9,825 nucleotides of DNA from a virus (lineage: Duplodnaviria > Heunggongvirae > Uroviricota > Caudoviricetes), in the IMG/VR virus record IMGVR_UViG_2713896737_000030. One strand, written 5' to 3'. A model generated the notes under the pieces. That model made no database searches and was not told where the DNA came from. It saw only the letters and a program-made list of their open reading frames with translations. Made by a program: the position numbers and the translations under genes. This document shows positions 2,284 through 9,825 of the stretch, one piece after another; positions within the stretch are counted from its first letter, which is position 1, and every line of letters begins with the position of its first letter.

Positions 2284-2457
2284 TTATCCTTTGGGTTCTA
2301 TGCCGCGTTGCTGTAATTCTTTGCGGAGAACGCGTTTAATCCAAGTGGCTAAAGATGTGTCGCCATCGGCCTTAGCAGCTTCTTCTAGCTGCGCTCTGAA
2401 GTCTTCCGGTAATCGCATTTGGTATGGAGGCGAACGTTTTTCTAATGGTGTTGACAT
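2284..2457 (-). CDS. Arc/MetJ-type ribbon-helix-helix DNA-binding protein (57 aa); not in the ORF track because it is under 60 aa
   Basis: Manual translation of the minus strand gives MSTPLEKRSPPYQMRLPEDFRAQLEEAAKADGDTSLATWIKRVLRKELQQRGIEPKG. This has the RHH pattern (beta strand YQMRLPEDF, helix, G-x-S/T-L turn, second helix) comparable to P22 Arc and Mnt. SD-like AAGGG lies 8 nt upstream of the ATG. Confidence 0.65.
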   Translation of the reverse strand: MSTPLEKRSPPYQMRLPEDFRAQLEEAAKADGDTSLATWIKRVLRKELQQRGIEPKG

Positions 2458-3675: not shown

Positions 3676-3975
3676 ATGAAACTTAAATATTCTGGCTTAA
3701 CTGCCAGTGGCAACACTCACCCTAAATTTACGCGCGGTGATATTTACCGCGACCAGTACGGCGGCACGGTAATGATTAAGGGCGTGGAAGAACGGCGCGT
3801 AACCTACCGCCGTGAAGGTTACGAATATGATTGCGTGATGCCTGTTTATCAGTTCCGGCGTGATTTTTCTCTGGTACAGACCGCGCCGCATAACGTGCCC
3901 ACCAGCAACGCCAGGGCACGGGCAAACATCCAGAAGCTGAAAACCATGGTTAACGGATTCAGGGGCAAGAAATGA
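3676..3975 (+). CDS. Hypothetical protein (99 aa)
   Basis: GGAGAA SD upstream. Stop overlaps the ATG of the replication gene (ATGA at 3972-3975). Confidence 0.65.
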   Translation: MKLKYSGLTASGNTHPKFTRGDIYRDQYGGTVMIKGVEERRVTYRREGYEYDCVMPVYQFRRDFSLVQTAPHNVPTSNARARANIQKLKTMVNGFRGKK

Positions 3976-5372
3976 AAAGCGCACCGAACTTAAAAAAACA
4001 GCCTTACGACAAGATGACCGAAGTCATTATTTTTGCGGGTAGTGATGCCTGGGCACATGCGAAACAGTGGCAGGAACAGGACGGGCGACTGGCTGGCGAT
4101 AATGTGCCTCCCGTTGTGCTGGCTGATGATCAACTGGATGAACTGGCAGAACTGAGAATCATCGACGAGGGGCGCTATTGTGTCCGGCTGTACAAGGCAG
4201 GCCACATCAGGCCATCAAATATTAATGCCATTGCGCACAAGCTGGCGGCGGCGGGTGTAACTGATGCGAATTATTACCCCGAAGGGATGCACAGCCATAT
4301 GCGGGAGAACTGGCGCGAATACCTGGAACGGGTGCGCGGGAAAGAGCCGGCGGAAGAAAAAAACCACCAGCGAAAAACCACGCTACCGATGAGCGTTGGA
4401 TCTACCGGATACGACACGCAACTGGATTACGTGGTTAAGGGGATTATTCCGGCGGTATCGCTATGCAGCATATACGGGGCTAGCGGGTCCTATAAATCAT
4501 TCCTTGCCGGATCGTGGGCGTGCCATGTTGCCACTGGTCGCCAGTGGGGAGGCCGCAGGGTTGCACATGGTGCGGTTCTCTATGTGGTTGGTGAAGGCGG
4601 TATAGGTGTTCCGCGTCGTGTAAAAGCCTGGGAGGTTGTGCACGATGAGCAGGTGAAAAATCTGTATCTGGTAAACCGCCCCATCTTTCCGGCTGCCCCG
4701 CTTGATGTTGATGAAATGGTTATCGCTGCCCGTCAGGTGGAGCGGGAAACGGGTAAACCTGTACGCATGATTATTCTGGATACGCTGGCGCGTTGCTTTG
4801 GTGGGAATGATGAAAATGATTCCCGTGATATGGGGGCGTTTATCCGTGGTTGTGACGAACTGAAACGACGCACAGGGGCCACGGTGCTGGTGGTTCACCA
4901 TTCCGGCAAGGATGAGACGAAAGGCGCGCGCGGTTCCAGTGCATTTCGTGCTTCGCTGGATGCTGAATACCGGATACGCAGGGAGGACGCAGGAAGCGAA
5001 GCGCTGGTTATCTCATGCACCAAAATGAAGGACGCGGAGGAACTCAAAGAAGCCGCATATGACTTACGCGTGGTGGAGCTTTTTACCGACGCTGACGGTG
5101 AATTAATCACGTCGCTGGTGGTGGTGGATGATCCGCGCCCTCCTGTTGAACTGGAGCGCATCGAGGAGGCAGGGAACAAGACGGAAAACCATACCGCGCT
5201 ATGGGGGTGCATCCGTTCACGCACACAGAACGGCGACAAGTGCACGATCCCGCTGTTACGTGATGACATGAAAAAGCTGGGGTATGAAATGAAAAACTTC
5301 CGGCGCTGGCTGTACAAGCTGGAAAAAGATGGGGTTATTCGTATCGATGGGGATGATGTAGCGCCGCTATAA
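3972..5372 (+). CDS. Replication initiator ATPase/helicase, RepA-like RecA-fold (AAA_25-type) domain with N-terminal extension (466 aa); PICI pri/rep-like
   Basis: Walker A-like GASGSYKS, Walker B-like RMIILD, and downstream VVHHSGKD...RGSSA motifs typical of RepA/DnaB-like RecA-fold ATPases. Positioned after alpA and followed by an iteron array. Confidence 0.85.
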   Translation: MKSAPNLKKQPYDKMTEVIIFAGSDAWAHAKQWQEQDGRLAGDNVPPVVLADDQLDELAELRIIDEGRYCVRLYKAGHIRPSNINAIAHKLAAAGVTDANYYPEGMHSHMRENWREYLERVRGKEPAEEKNHQRKTTLPMSVGSTGYDTQLDYVVKGIIPAVSLCSIYGASGSYKSFLAGSWACHVATGRQWGGRRVAHGAVLYVVGEGGIGVPRRVKAWEVVHDEQVKNLYLVNRPIFPAAPLDVDEMVIAARQVERETGKPVRMIILDTLARCFGGNDENDSRDMGAFIRGCDELKRRTGATVLVVHHSGKDETKGARGSSAFRASLDAEYRIRREDAGSEALVISCTKMKDAEELKEAAYDLRVVELFTDADGELITSLVVVDDPRPPVELERIEEAGNKTENHTALWGCIRSRTQNGDKCTIPLLRDDMKKLGYEMKNFRRWLYKLEKDGVIRIDGDDVAPL

Positions 5373-5563
5373 AAGTGAGGAGCAAAAGCGAGGGGGATAG
5401 AAAGAGGGCCAAAATTAGCCCGCTCTCCCTCACTTTTCGACCTGTATACATCCTCAAAAGTGAGGGGTAAAAAAATACTTATGAAACACACACATAGAAA
5501 AACCGAAAATCCCAACTGCGACGAAGTGAGACGCTTGAAAAAGTGAGGCGAAAAAGTGAGAGG
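5372..5563. repeat. Iteron array (candidate replication origin): at least 6 copies of AAGTGAG, consensus (A)AAAGTGAGG, including one inverted copy
   Basis: Direct copies at 5373-5379, 5457-5463, 5524-5530, 5541-5547 and 5554-5560; inverted copy at 5428-5437 (CCTCACTTTT). Degenerate copies at 5385-5396 and 5401-5410. Lies immediately downstream of the rep gene. Confidence 0.65.
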
Positions 5564-5572
5564 TTGCGAGAA

Positions 5573-5824
5573 ATGACCCAAAAACGCAGAGACAGAACAG
5601 AGCCAAAATATAAAGCGTTAGACATGACTGAGCACACCTTAAAGGTGGCAATCAGAACGATAGACCGCCACACGCGGGAAGGATACGCGAAGGAACATCC
5701 CGACCTGATAAGCGCATTCATGACCACGGCGGCGGCAAACTTTGCCACGCTGACAGAACGGGAGATTGCCGAAGCGGAACAGGTAACAACCATCAACGTT
5801 AAAACCGGAGAGGTGGAATTATGA
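5573..5824 (+). CDS. Hypothetical protein (83 aa; start uncertain, alternatives at 5543 and 5620)
   Basis: ORF-track 5543..5824, but the 5543 start would lie inside the iterons. ATG at 5573 has a GAGAGG SD-like sequence upstream. Stop overlaps the ssb start (ATGA at 5821-5824). Confidence 0.5.
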   Translation: MTQKRRDRTEPKYKALDMTEHTLKVAIRTIDRHTREGYAKEHPDLISAFMTTAAANFATLTEREIAEAEQVTTINVKTGEVEL

Positions 5825-6231
5825 CGGCACAGATAGCCGCTTACGGGCGGCTGGTGGACGACCCGCAGGTAAAACAGACCAGCAAGGGCACACCGATGAC
5901 GCTGGCGCGTATGGCGGTATCTTTGCCATGCAGCCAGGCACAGGACGGACAGGCGACGTTATGGTTATCGGTCATCGCATTTGGCAAACAGGCCGGCTTC
6001 CTGGCTAAACATCAAAAAGGCGATGTTGCCAGCGTATCCGGCACGATGCAGGTAAGCCAGTGGACCGGACAGAACGGAGAAACGCGGCAGGGCTGGCAGG
6101 TTATCGCAGACAGCGTAATCAGTGCCCGCGCGGCACGTCCAGGCGGGAACAGACGCAAAACCACAGGCACACAGGGTAATCAGCCACCAGCGGGAGGCGA
6201 TGACCCTTACGGTGATGATATTTCGTTCTGA
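5821..6231 (+). CDS. ssb: Single-stranded DNA-binding protein (SSB-like OB-fold) with Gly/Gln-rich linker and acidic C-terminal tail (DDPYGDDISF)
   Basis: N-terminal region resembles E. coli SSB (RLVDDPQVK...; WLSVIAFGKQAGFLAKHQKGDVASVSGTMQVSQWTGQNGETR compared with [40 protein letters not shown]). C-terminus resembles the SSB DDDIPF tail. Confidence 0.75.
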   Translation: MTAQIAAYGRLVDDPQVKQTSKGTPMTLARMAVSLPCSQAQDGQATLWLSVIAFGKQAGFLAKHQKGDVASVSGTMQVSQWTGQNGETRQGWQVIADSVISARAARPGGNRRKTTGTQGNQPPAGGDDPYGDDISF

Positions 6232-6241
6232 GGGGGTGACG

Positions 6242-6514
6242 ATGGTACATGACCGCATAGCGGAGGAACTGGAGGCGAAAGGCTTTTACCGGAGGGCGGC
6301 GGCGCGATGGGGTGAAGTCATGCAGCTGGTGGAGACAGACAAGGAACGGCATCACATCACGATGCGACGGCTGGAATGTTCAAGGAAGGCACAGAGGGCA
6401 CCGGAGCCGCCGGATAATTTCGGAGACCTGAAAAAGGCAGTCGATCGCACTTATGCCGAAATGGGTATAGATGGTGCTGGTGATGAAATATGGCGCAATT
6501 ACCAGGACAGCTAA
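6242..6514 (+). CDS. PerC-family transcriptional regulator-like protein (90 aa)
   Basis: Start ATG 6242 with a GAGGGGG SD. N-terminus MVHDRIAEELEAKGFYRRAAARW matches the PerC/Pch signature (AExLExxGxWRRAAxRW). The longer track ORF from 6122 overlaps ssb and is rejected. Confidence 0.7.
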   Translation: MVHDRIAEELEAKGFYRRAAARWGEVMQLVETDKERHHITMRRLECSRKAQRAPEPPDNFGDLKKAVDRTYAEMGIDGAGDEIWRNYQDS

Positions 6515-6520
6515 TCAAAC

Positions 6521-6544
6521 AGCCGGAGAAATCCGGCTTTTTTT
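6521..6544 (+). terminator. Rho-independent terminator (copy 1 of a repeated hairpin)
   Basis: AGCCGGA-GAAA-TCCGGCT stem-loop (7-bp stem, GAAA tetraloop) followed by 7 Ts, directly after the PerC-like stop. Confidence 0.8.
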
Positions 6545-6640
6545 GCACCAGTTGAAACGGTATGGCGCATTACCGGGTTTTCGTCACGGTCAGGCATAGT
6601 TACTATCTGAAACAAACAGACACAACAGAGGAAAAAAACA

Positions 6641-6865
6641 ATGCCGATGAAATTTGATGAGATATTAAAACAGCGTGATAAATACCATGCTGACAACATG
6701 GAGACGATGAGCATCAATGATTACCGCGCATTCCTGGAGACGGGCGCACTGATTGAAAAGGATCAGCATGGTTTTGTGAGATGTGCTCTATCCGGTGAAA
6801 TGCTGGCGGTAAATCCTGAACAGATAGATGCATTGATAGAATTTCTGAAAGAGATCAGAGACTGA
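6641..6865 (+). CDS. Hypothetical small protein (74 aa), a stand-alone gene bounded by terminators
   Basis: AGAGGA SD 8 nt upstream of the ATG. Flanked by terminators at 6521-6544 and 6885-6907. Confidence 0.6.
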   Translation: MPMKFDEILKQRDKYHADNMETMSINDYRAFLETGALIEKDQHGFVRCALSGEMLAVNPEQIDALIEFLKEIRD

Positions 6866-6884
6866 GCCAGCACACAGCACACAT

Positions 6885-6907
6885 AGCCGGAGCAATCCGG
6901 CTTTTTT
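6885..6907 (+). terminator. Rho-independent terminator (copy 2 of the repeated hairpin)
   Basis: GCCGGA-GCAA-TCCGGC followed by 6 Ts. Confidence 0.75.
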
Positions 6908-6913
6908 GCGCCC

Positions 6914-6955
6914 AAAAAAAGCCCGATAAGGTCAGAGGGTTCTTATCGGGCTTTT
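6914..6955. terminator. Bidirectional terminator-like hairpin (10-bp stem GCCCGATAAG / CTTATCGGGC, A7 upstream, T4 downstream)
   Basis: Perfect 10-bp inverted repeat at 6921-6930 / 6942-6951 with an 11-nt loop. The A-run at 6914-6920 gives a 7-U tract when read on the minus strand. Confidence 0.6.
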
Positions 6956-7032
6956 GCATATGAGGTTTTTGGATGCACTGGCGTTCGTGATCGGGATAAT
7001 CATTTCATAATTTGCAACATAACTCAATATCA

Positions 7033-7062
7033 TTGCATAAAATGCAATTCTGATTATAATCA
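7033..7062 (+). promoter_or_regulatory. Candidate promoter for the head-gene operon: consensus TATAAT at 7055-7060 inside the 12-bp palindrome TGATTATAATCA (7051-7062); upstream inverted repeat TTGCA-N5-TGCAA (7033-7047)
   Basis: Read directly. AT-rich region between the bidirectional terminator and the first gene of the capsid operon. Which -35 hexamer is used is unclear. Confidence 0.35.
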
Positions 7063-7116
7063 GGACTGGATAAACATCCAGTTATGATTTTTTTAGTCGA
7101 AGAGGAATTTCTTACT

Positions 7117-7323
7117 ATGGCTGAAGAGAAAAAAAGCGGTGTTTCGGTGTACATAAGCCCCGAAATCGTGGAGGTGCTCAAGCAGCGCCACAAAAAAAAC
7201 TATGAAGCTGGCGTTGCGGCTGGACTGGATCCGCTGATGACGCCGGAGCCGTCGATAGGTTCACTTGTACGCTCTTATTTACTTGCGGCGCTTGGGATGC
7301 ATAAAAATTATGGGGGTGAATAA
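7117..7323 (+). CDS. Hypothetical small protein (68 aa; alternative start 7084), translationally coupled to the capsid gene
   Basis: AGAGGA about 10 nt upstream of ATG 7117. Stop TAA overlaps the capsid gene ATG (TAATG at 7321-7325). Confidence 0.5.
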   Translation: MAEEKKSGVSVYISPEIVEVLKQRHKKNYEAGVAAGLDPLMTPEPSIGSLVRSYLLAALGMHKNYGGE

Positions 7324-8390: not shown

Positions 8391-8726
8391 ATGGACACTC
8401 CATACATTGAGTTATTTGCAGGCAGTCAGCAGGTATCCACGACGTTGGTACATTTTGCCGCTGATGCTGGCGTTATTCAGGAATTTACCCCGCTGATGCT
8501 GGCAGACAATGGCGAGTTTAAGCCGTGGGATGGTCAGGAATCTGGCAAGGCTGTTTATCTGACCTCGTACCCTGTGGACACGTCAAAGCAGAAATCAGCA
8601 CAGTGTTACAAGACGGGGATATTCAATATTGCCGCCGTTAACTGGCCTGAGAGCGTCGACACCGATGCGAAAAAATGCGCCGCCTTTGCGGGTTCCGGCG
8701 TATCCGTTCAGCCGCTGGCCCGATAA
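8391..8726 (+). CDS. Head decoration protein, phage lambda gpD-like (111 aa)
   Basis: TPLMLADNGEFKPWDG vs lambda D TPLMLDTSSRKLVAWDG; CYKTGIFNIAAVNWPESVDTDAKKCAAFAGSGVSVQ vs [36 protein letters not shown]. Length 111 vs 110 aa. Confidence 0.8.
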   Translation: MDTPYIELFAGSQQVSTTLVHFAADAGVIQEFTPLMLADNGEFKPWDGQESGKAVYLTSYPVDTSKQKSAQCYKTGIFNIAAVNWPESVDTDAKKCAAFAGSGVSVQPLAR

Positions 8727-9357: not shown

Positions 9358-9702
9358 ATGAAATCTCATCTGATGAACAAAAAAAACATGGCGAAAAGCT
9401 GCCGTGTAAGTGCGACAGCGTTCGACAAGTGGGGAGTAACTCCCGTTGAGCGTAAAGGCCGTGAGGCGTTTTATGATGTTGCCAGCGTGATAGAAAATAG
9501 GGTTAACAATGCAATTAGCCAGCTTATAAACGACAAAGGCGAGATTGACGATGATGAACTTTTACGAGTCAGGATCAGATTACTGACAGCACAGGCAGAG
9601 GCGCAGGAACTTAAAAACGATCGCGGTGACGTGATTGATACTGAGTTTTGCCTGTACGCGCTTTCAAAGCTGGCGAGTCAGATTTCATCAATCATGGACT
9701 GA
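9358..9702 (+). CDS. Terminase small subunit, lambda Nu1-like (PICI Rpp-like); 114 aa, apparently truncated at the 3' end by an IS insertion
   Basis: LTAQAEAQELKNDRGDVIDTEFCLYALSKLASQISSIMD matches lambda Nu1 [42 protein letters not shown]. N-terminal region resembles the Nu1 winged-HTH region. Nu1 is 181 aa; here the reading frame ends with a TGA that is the first three bases of the IS (9700-9702). The exact start is uncertain (ATGs at 9358, 9373, 9388; none has a good SD). Confidence 0.75.
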   Translation: MKSHLMNKKNMAKSCRVSATAFDKWGVTPVERKGREAFYDVASVIENRVNNAISQLINDKGEIDDDELLRVRIRLLTAQAEAQELKNDRGDVIDTEFCLYALSKLASQISSIMD

Positions 9703-9825
9703 ACCGCCCCGGAAATCCTGGAGACTAAACTCCCTGAGAAAGAGGTAAACAGGATGACTAAAAATACTCGTTTTTCCCCCGAAGTCCGTCAGCGGGCGAT
9801 TCGTATGGTTCTGGAAAGTCAGGAT
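9700..9825 (+). mobile_element. IS3-family insertion sequence (IS629/IS1203-like left end), partial; continues beyond the window
   Basis: Left terminus TGAACCGCCCCGGAAATCCTGGAGACTAAACTCCCTGAGAAAGAGGTAAACAGG followed by the OrfA start. The terminal sequence and OrfA N-terminus match IS3-group elements as recalled. Confidence 0.75.
9754..9825 (+). CDS. IS3-family transposase OrfA (HTH subunit), N-terminal 24 codons; partial, runs off the window
   Basis: MTKNTRFSPEVRQRAIRMVLESQD matches the conserved N-terminus of IS629-like OrfA (MTKNTRFSPEVRQRAVRMVLESQ...). SD GAGAAAGAGG upstream. Confidence 0.8.
   Translation, partial: MTKNTRFSPEVRQRAIRMVLESQD

Follow-up and report, generated by a model that had tools for sequence, protein, structure and literature searches.

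Context and sequence of ssb and pchE in an EcCICFT073-family satellite island of Escherichia coli O157:H7

Helper-phage-dependent induction, replication and high-frequency transfer have been demonstrated for EcCICFT073, a phage-inducible chromosomal island (PICI) in which AlpA is the activator of the cycle and the homologues of capsid and decoration genes are dispensable for transfer (PMC6092414). In the published layout of Gram-negative PICIs the replication origin (ori) lies 3' of the rep gene (PMC6092414), and some PICIs of Escherichia coli encode variants of the regulator PerC (Fillol-Salom et al., PMC6092414; also PMC11773190). Prophage Sp7 of strain Sakai, which is O-island 51 or CP-933C of strain EDL933, has been studied as the capsid-forming PICI EcCIEDL933 (10.1101/2022.09.08.507074). 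A single-stranded DNA (ssDNA)-binding protein (SSB) and PchE were listed as components of O-island 51 in 2011, and the SSB was reported to be conserved in related regions of ED1a and CFT073 (PMC3378721). Zhang et al. (PMC1890555) found pchE in strains of lineages I and I/II, with the other open reading frames (ORFs) of Sp7 missing from lineage I/II, a pattern that fits the mosaic structure of the island. In this paper we describe the ssb and pchE genes of a 9,825-nucleotide stretch of DNA, IMG/VR record IMGVR_UViG_2713896737_000030, which in its full length is referred to here as the window. Both genes are already named and described, and their finding is an ordinary one; what is added is a discrete, terminator-bounded cassette that, judging by alignment, passes among satellites whose replication and capsid modules differ; PerC appears to be an optional part of it, and its SSB allele of the O157 clade-8 type carries the ssb-113 substitution.

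Chromosomes of O157:H7 strains such as TW14359 and EC4115 match the window at 99.8-99.9% identity, and 361 of the 5426 complete E. coli genomes carried at least 80% of it. The TW14359 copy is an island of approximately 10.4 kb with roxA and phoQ on either side, for which RefSeq gives the names 'single-stranded DNA-binding protein' to WP_000126695.1 and 'PerC family transcriptional regulator' to WP_000233304.1. The same roxA-phoQ site in Sakai holds 'prophage Sp7; untypable', with ECs_1587 'single stranded DNA-binding protein' and ECs_1588 'transcriptional regulator PchE'. The window carries int, alpA, a rep gene with an iteron origin and a capsid/decoration/TerS-like module, in agreement with the satellite context assumed in the original prediction from this DNA. 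Of the features by which Gram-negative PICIs are recognised, the island has an integrase at one end, alpA, its own replicase with a 3' origin, a specific att site and a size in the class of approximately 10-15 kb, and it is free of lysis and tail genes. Judged from its sequence and site, the window is a clade-8-type variant of O-island 51/CP-933C/Sakai Sp7, of the EcCICFT073 family, resident between roxA and phoQ of O157:H7.

We consider it likely that ssb and pchE are the second and third genes of an accessory cassette placed after the replication origin, in which SSB serves as a replication accessory and PchE as an accessory regulator of the host, not as an activator of the capsid genes.

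The ssb-pchE cassette

Comparison of the window with the Sakai locus by blastn resolved three blocks: int, alpA and the ORFs that follow (94%), the RgdR region (78%), and positions 5571-6906 (94%). The last of these is a 1.34-kb cassette on the plus strand, common to Sakai Sp7, which consists of the four genes orf83, ssb, pchE and orf74 with their terminators. It corresponds to positions 31102-32426 of the Sakai locus at 93.9% identity, with unrelated flanks on both sides. The helicase gene, the iteron region and all sequence after 6906 have no counterpart in the Sakai locus, and the alignment ends right after a terminator at approximately 6906. At the level of aligned DNA, the cassette as a whole is passed between islands that differ in replicase and capsid module. 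Among the 5426 complete E. coli genomes, part of the cassette was present in 1694 and at least 80% of it in 535.

The first gene, orf83 (5573-5824, plus strand), encodes a conserved hypothetical protein (phrog_1231, E 4.9e-53) and precedes this SSB in every case. Its stop codon overlaps the ssb start (ATGA), which suggests translational coupling of the two genes. The gap between ssb and pchE is 10 nt, and a scan of the plus strand between these two genes found no promoter-like site. Because of the overlap, the short gap and the lack of a promoter-like site, orf83, ssb and pchE probably form one transcript that ends at 6545, where the scan placed an intrinsic terminator (6521-6545, plus strand; hairpin 6521-6538). 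This terminator reads AGCCGGAG-AAAT-CCGGCT followed by seven T residues and is identical in Sakai. The fourth gene, orf74 (6641-6865, plus strand), encodes a conserved hypothetical protein of 74 aa (phrog_1957, E 2.3e-42) and is absent from CFT073 and from islands that lack PerC. After it the terminator hairpin recurs as AGCCGGAG-CAAT-CCGGCT with six T residues (6885-6907, plus strand; hairpin 6885-6902), and this copy forms the 3' end of the cassette. In the PerC-less island of strain Nissle the same terminator hairpin stands directly after ssb. Since this is the arrangement in PerC-less islands, the comparison suggests that the small genes pchE and orf74 have been gained or lost by recombination at the terminator repeats. 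The general form of the hairpin, AGCCGGAG-NAAT-CCGGCT with a run of T residues, thus occurs after pchE, after orf74 and, in islands without both genes, right after ssb (approximately 8690-8712 of locus L003).

The ratio of nonsynonymous to synonymous substitution rates (dN/dS) of orf83 is 0.32, and an AlphaFold2 (AF2) model of its product made from the single sequence, with a mean predicted local distance difference test (pLDDT) score of 53, was uninformative. ORFs on the minus strand of the interval gave no significant Pfam match. RefSeq also calls a 42-aa 'hypothetical protein', WP_001301569.1, at 6471-6599 of the plus strand; it overlaps the end of pchE, runs through the pchE terminator, matches no family and is probably a spurious call.

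SSB, its C-terminal tip and the adjacent origin

The ssb gene (5821-6231, plus strand) encodes a satellite-lineage SSB of 136 aa with an oligonucleotide-binding (OB) fold at approximately residues 1-100, a short basic linker and the acidic tip DDPYGDDISF. Profile searches bore out the family assignment that had been made from the sequence, with matches to Pfam PF00436 (58.2 bits, cut-off 26, E 9.3e-16), to phrog_44 'single strand DNA binding protein' (E 4.5e-39) and, barely over its cut-off of 53.95, to TIGR00621 (54.4 bits). By sequence it also matches bacterial SSBs of solved structure, best of all that of Thermotoga, 1z9f (E 2.4e-10). In a pairwise alignment the protein is 26% identical to E. 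coli SSB in the OB domain, and three of the four aromatic residues that contact ssDNA are kept (W48, F54 and W81 for W54, F60 and W88 of E. coli SSB). The position of W40 aligns with C37, inside a loop with a 3-residue gap, and the tetramerisation residue His55 is replaced by Leu49.

The dN/dS of ssb is 0.06-0.08 in comparisons with Sakai and CFT073, and so the gene is, on the evidence of these rates, under strong purifying selection and maintained. The window SSB is 97% identical to Sakai ECs1587, from which it differs at 4 residues, 2 of them within the last four, and the exact window sequence occurs on at least 1000 contigs. This SSB accompanies three replicases, a RepA helicase, a primase and a DUF927 primase, and its position is always right after the ori region. 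A scan of one genome per species returned three loci only, one in E. albertii and two with remote SSBs of Gemmatimonadales.

Among the representatives of 120 homologue clusters the tip was DDPYGDDIPF in 64, DDPYGDNIPF in 23 and DDISF in only 5, and nearly all of the full-length homologues end in IPF. EcCICFT073 has DDIPF and Sakai DGIPF; O145:H28 strain RM13516 has ISF, as does the window, and ISF was found on several different SSB backgrounds. Tails of the family vary at position -4, which may be D, N, G, E or S. Bacterial SSBs typically have an acidic tip that closes with Asp-Ile-Pro-Phe, although Pfam membership does not call for one. The original prediction spoke of a modified tail; the last ten residues are indeed DDPYGDDISF, but they do not make a distinct type of tail, as they are one Pro-to-Ser change away from the consensus DDIPF, with the acidic residues and the terminal Phe retained. 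The change at the penultimate Pro is the same as that in E. coli ssb-113, the protein of which binds ssDNA normally and is defective for chi, ExoI, RecQ, PriA, RecG and other partners; the allele is temperature-sensitive lethal (PMC3045619, PMC3159472). By analogy, the tip of the window SSB is predicted to weaken recruitment of host partners and to leave DNA binding unaffected. That a widespread natural SSB allele, of the O157 clade-8 type, carries the classic ssb-113 substitution is a mild surprise and a minor curiosity.

The presumed replication origin (5371-5563, no strand assigned) consists of six AAGTGAG iterons around an A+T-rich centre and lies immediately 3' of the gene for a RepA-type helicase (3972-5372; AAA_25, E 2.4e-43). 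The iterons start at 5373, 5429 (minus strand), 5458, 5524, 5541 and 5554, and all six copies in the window fall within 5373-5560; approximately 0.8 are expected by chance, and none of 200 shuffled sequences reached six. From this arrangement we infer that the region acts as the origin, and both ssb and pchE lie downstream of it, as the original prediction had placed them.

PchE and the capsid-module promoter

The third gene of the cassette (6242-6514, plus strand) encodes a group-3 PerC homologue of 90 aa and has its own ribosome-binding site, GAGGGGG, before the ATG. The product matches Pfam PF06069 (PerC) over positions 1-89 of 90 with 146.1 bits (cut-off 22.6, E 3.9e-43), which upholds the PerC assignment made earlier. 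It is 90% identical to Sakai ECs_1588 and is encoded in the same cassette at the same roxA-phoQ site; on these grounds of identity and position the gene is an allele of PchE, so that the link once drawn to the Pch virulence regulators applies directly. A longer, GTG-started ORF (6122-6514) was rejected as the PerC gene: its 40-aa extension overlaps the end of ssb, the profile match begins at residue 41, and RefSeq and Sakai use the 90-aa form. The protein differs from the Sakai-type allele at 9 of 90 residues, its dN/dS is 0.23, and its exact sequence occurs on at least 1000 contigs. The conservation of both ssb and pchE, each with a dN/dS well under 1, shows by these measures that the two are not ORFs that arose by chance.

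The invariant PerC residues D4, G14, R17, R18, R22, W23, D33, R42, R43 and C46 are present in PchE. An AF2 model built from 60 relatives has four helices (mean pLDDT 87), and nothing in the protein resembled a helix-turn-helix or another fold that binds DNA. Residues 7-52 match the ANR model NF033650 with 20.4 bits, under the curated cut-off of 32, and membership of that family was rejected.

The group-3 Pch of O157 is reportedly not needed for LEE (locus of enterocyte effacement) expression (PMC6265319, citing Iyoda and Watanabe 2004 and Porter 2005; PMC11773190). PICI-encoded PerC-like proteins of the PchE type reportedly do not activate LEE1, and a PICI PerC-like protein that represses LEE1 has been described (PMC11773190). 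When expressed from a plasmid, PchE represses csgD, curli, biofilm and adhesion to HEp-2 cells and raises flagellar expression (PMC6265319, PMC7369912). The published PchE work dealt with an allele of the Sakai type and not with that of the window, since its primers specify ...GDGIPF* upstream of pchE.

In islands of Salmonella and Citrobacter (5474-6282 of locus L011; 5783-6288 of locus L013) the PerC gene overlaps the end of a gene for a ProQ/FinO-domain protein, which holds the slot of the E. coli SSB; in both arrangements a nucleic-acid-binding protein is encoded directly before PerC.

Beyond the cassette, the regulatory region of the capsid module (6917-7116, plus strand) was read from the sequence. 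By eye it contains a third hairpin (6920-6952, plus strand) and a promoter-like TTGCAT-16-TATAAT (7033-7060, plus strand) with a perfect -10 and a weak -35 element, which the scan did not call as the -35 has only three of six matches. The promoter is overlapped by a perfect palindrome, ATTGCAT-N3-ATGCAAT (7032-7048, plus strand), of which the window has no other copy when 0 mismatches are allowed; at approximately +1 lies an inverted repeat, CTGGAT-N4-ATCCAG (7065-7080, plus strand). Both the palindrome and the inverted repeat are conserved in six islands and look, from their symmetry, like operator sites for some regulator. A hairpin at 7064-7083 was rejected as a terminator for this promoter, because its stem would already contain the start of a transcript initiated approximately 7 nt past the -10 element. 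The module opens with a gene (7117-7323, plus strand) for a small protein (phrog_3255).

A stretch of 209 bases, which starts with the hairpin at 6917 and reaches into the initial codons of the module's first gene, is 96% identical in the six islands. Three of these have PerC (the window, O145:H28 RM13516 and CFT073), and three do not (Nissle/EcN, ATCC 25922 and 2017C-4173W12), a six-frame search of the loci fetched for the latter strains having found no PerC homologue. Strains 2017C-4173W12 and RM13516 share the same RepA replicase and RgdR protein and form a near-isogenic pair without and with PerC. Nine island loci were retrieved through their SSB or capsid-module promoter, that is, without reference to PerC, and tblastn found PerC in 5 and none in 4. 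By these comparisons PerC is an optional component, as sister islands with the same SSB, replicase and capsid-module promoter are without it.

These observations bear on the proposal, made in the original prediction, that the PerC-like protein sits directly upstream of the head module and could be the late-gene activator of the island. PchE would then act at the end of an AlpA-driven early operon and switch on or de-silence the 7033-7060 promoter of the capsid/decoration/TerS-like module. PerC-family genes do occupy the same slot in several island types, after the rep gene, ori and a gene for a nucleic-acid-binding protein and ahead of the module that follows; the module downstream is cut off by two clear terminators and would need a promoter of its own; a perfect -10 with a weak -35 overlapped by a palindrome is often seen in activator-dependent promoters; and the region, at 36-37% GC, is a plausible target of H-NS, from which group-1 Pch proteins relieve silencing by displacing H-NS complexes (PMC4764244). 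The gene is not directly upstream, however: orf74, the two terminator hairpins and the hairpin at 6920-6952 lie between. The conservation of promoter and module in PerC-less islands, one of them with the same RepA replicase, runs counter to the proposal. The DNA common to Sakai Sp7 stops at the terminator, and the regulatory DNA of the capsid modules is unrelated between the two islands, so regulator and target promoter are not inherited together and recombine independently. Salmonella and Citrobacter islands that have no capsid genes also carry PerC homologues, placed after a ProQ/FinO-like gene, and a P22-like prophage has one in its accessory region. No DNA-binding fold could be recognised in PchE, nor is a dimer evident that might read the palindrome. 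Finally, the pchE transcript is reportedly present without induction and falls on SOS induction (PMC6265319, PMC7369912), the opposite of what is expected of a late activator. Because PerC is optional, control of the capsid genes by PchE, and with it a dedicated role as late activator, appears unlikely from the sequence comparisons. Some activator or anti-silencer may well act at the 7033-7060 promoter, given the weak -35 element under a perfect palindrome in an A+T-rich region.

Proposed roles, other features and comparison with known systems

If SSB is a replication accessory and PchE an accessory host regulator, the following sequence of events may be proposed. A helper phage would induce AlpA, and SSB would be made together with the replication genes of the island. 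It would coat the ssDNA formed when the RepA-type helicase opens the adjacent iteron origin, and again during concatemer synthesis, and would be an extra supply when helper and island replication compete for the host SSB pool. The DDIPF tip of most relatives would recruit the host replisome and repair partners, and the DDISF allele would recruit less, with DNA binding intact. PchE would be a small, all-helical, TPR (tetratricopeptide repeat)-like protein without a recognisable DNA-binding fold that acts as a regulator of host genes of the lysogenic-conversion type. Protein-protein contacts with nucleoid or regulatory proteins, as for group-1 Pch with H-NS, are the best guess for its mechanism because of the lack of such a fold, the four-helix model, the sub-threshold ANR match and the displacement of H-NS by group-1 Pch.

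Several points weigh against these roles. The equivalents of the tetramerisation residue His55 and of the ssDNA contact W40 are not conserved in the satellite SSB. The effect of the Pro-to-Ser change is extrapolated from E. coli SSB, to which the OB domain is only 26% identical, and may differ here. Published PchE phenotypes come mostly from plasmid expression of the Sakai-type allele, with 9 of 90 residues different from the window protein, and in many islands PerC is placed where early and late genes meet, so that it may have some regulatory role within the element as well. Moreover, the end of an IS629 element (TGAACCGCCCCGG...) at 9700-9825 sits inside the TerS-like gene, the product of which is cut to 114 aa, compared with 180 aa in TW14359. 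Because of this truncation the island copy in the window is probably not packageable, and as it also carries an icd-like pseudogene it may be immobile.

The IS629 insertion and the pseudogene invite the reading that ssb and pchE are inert passengers of a decaying island, with the Pro-to-Ser tip and D59G as the first disabling mutations, and in E. coli SSB the same Pro-to-Ser change causes a severe loss of function (PMC3159472). Both ORFs are intact, however, and each exact sequence is spread over the many contigs noted above; ISF occurs in O145:H28 and on several SSB backgrounds, dN/dS lies far below 1, and the IS629 insertion is absent from most copies of the island, including that of TW14359, where the TerS-like gene is an intact 543 bp. 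We therefore regard inertness as improbable. It is similarly doubtful that SSB is an interference or counter-defence factor which coats ssDNA without recruiting host nucleases and helicases, or competes with the SSB of host or helper. Variation is concentrated in the tip (half of the differences from Sakai, and the variable position -4), and the gene is conserved across islands with RepA helicase, primase or DUF927, so that it is not tied to one replication protein. On the other side, no PADLOC defence model matched the cassette proteins or their neighbours, the consensus tip is the canonical DDIPF and most members should engage host partners normally, and the place beside ori and a rep gene is classic for replication accessories. 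A more speculative variant, to which we assign little probability, takes the departures of the tip from DDIPF (DDISF in the window, DGIPF in Sakai and DNIPF in many islands) as adaptation and not noise. If this were true, an ssb-113-like SSB would coat satellite ssDNA without recruiting ExoI, RecQ, PriA or the chi subunit, and replication intermediates of the satellite would be shielded, or competition with the helper phage skewed. As a companion to this reading, PchE might be an optional anti-H-NS factor that raises expression of the island's A+T-rich late region or of helper genes. We infer that a replication accessory of the satellite is the most economical reading of SSB.

Some further features of the window may be noted. 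At 3676-3975 (plus strand) lies the gene for a DUF4222 protein that is 81% identical to RgdR (Sakai ECs1581) and keeps the RGD motif (R20-G21-D22). RgdR has been described as the activator, encoded by O-island 51, of LEE1 and type III secretion, and its RGD motif is functionally important (PMC3378721). A 57-aa ORF at 2284-2457 (minus strand), antisense to the region of the icd-like pseudogene, has a weak YlcI/YnfO match below the cut-off (E 0.0014); it is annotated in the sister islands of CFT073, EcN and O111 and is without annotation in TW14359. A search of the cultured-phage collection gave no DNA match to the window except IS629, and at the protein level weak matches only, of at most 42% identity for PerC-like proteins (7 records) and at most 35% for SSB (4 records). 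Neither ssb nor pchE is a typical phage gene. No Rfam family matched the window at the gathering threshold.

Among described systems, Sakai Sp7/O-island 51 (EcCIEDL933) shares with the window the roxA-phoQ site, the four-gene cassette (94% at the nucleotide level; SSB 97%, PchE 90%) and related integrase, alpA and RgdR genes. It differs in having a primase as replicase, where the window has a RepA-type AAA_25 helicase, and a full set of capsid, prohead protease, portal and large and small terminase genes, where the window has a lambda-gpE-like capsid, decoration and TerS-like module; the regulatory DNA before the capsid module is unrelated, and the SSB tip is DGIPF as opposed to DDISF. EcCICFT073, the prototype Gram-negative PICI (PMC6092414), has in common with the window the att site, the capsid/decoration module with its promoter region and the order orf83-SSB-PerC, and its SSB differs at 4 of 136 residues. 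Unlike the window it has a primase, no orf74, a shorter PerC of 82 aa with a different C-terminus, the SSB tip DDIPF and another last packaging gene in place of the TerS-like gene.

The satellite SSB resembles E. coli SSB in its OB-fold, in the equivalents of W54, F60 and W88 and in an acidic tip that ends in Phe, and it has the Pro-to-Ser change of ssb-113 (P176S). It is unlike E. coli SSB in its low identity (26%), in its length (136 aa compared with 178 aa), in not keeping the equivalents of W40 and His55, and in its linker, which is short and basic, whereas that of E. coli SSB is long and rich in Gly, Gln and Pro. PchE belongs to the same Pfam family as PerC of enteropathogenic E. coli and PchA/B/C of enterohaemorrhagic E. 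coli, which are group-1, anti-H-NS activators of LEE1, and shares with them an N-terminal core (G14, R17, R18, R22, W23, D33, R42, R43, C46) that is seen across 60 PchE-like relatives. In contrast to these proteins it falls in group 3, proved unnecessary for LEE expression in published tests and opposes adhesion (PMC6265319, PMC7369912, PMC11773190), and it is carried by a satellite island, whereas group-1 Pch and PerC are carried by a lambdoid prophage or a plasmid. With EcCIMP1_025, the PerC-like repressor of LEE1, and the ANR family (Aar) it has in common that it is a small, helical, PICI-borne regulator, and its residues 7-52 match the ANR model weakly. The match of PchE stays under the ANR cut-off (20.4 compared with 32 bits); the authors of the EcCIMP1 work noted the same resemblance to ANR, and PchE is approximately 40% identical to EcCIMP1_025 (PMC11773190).

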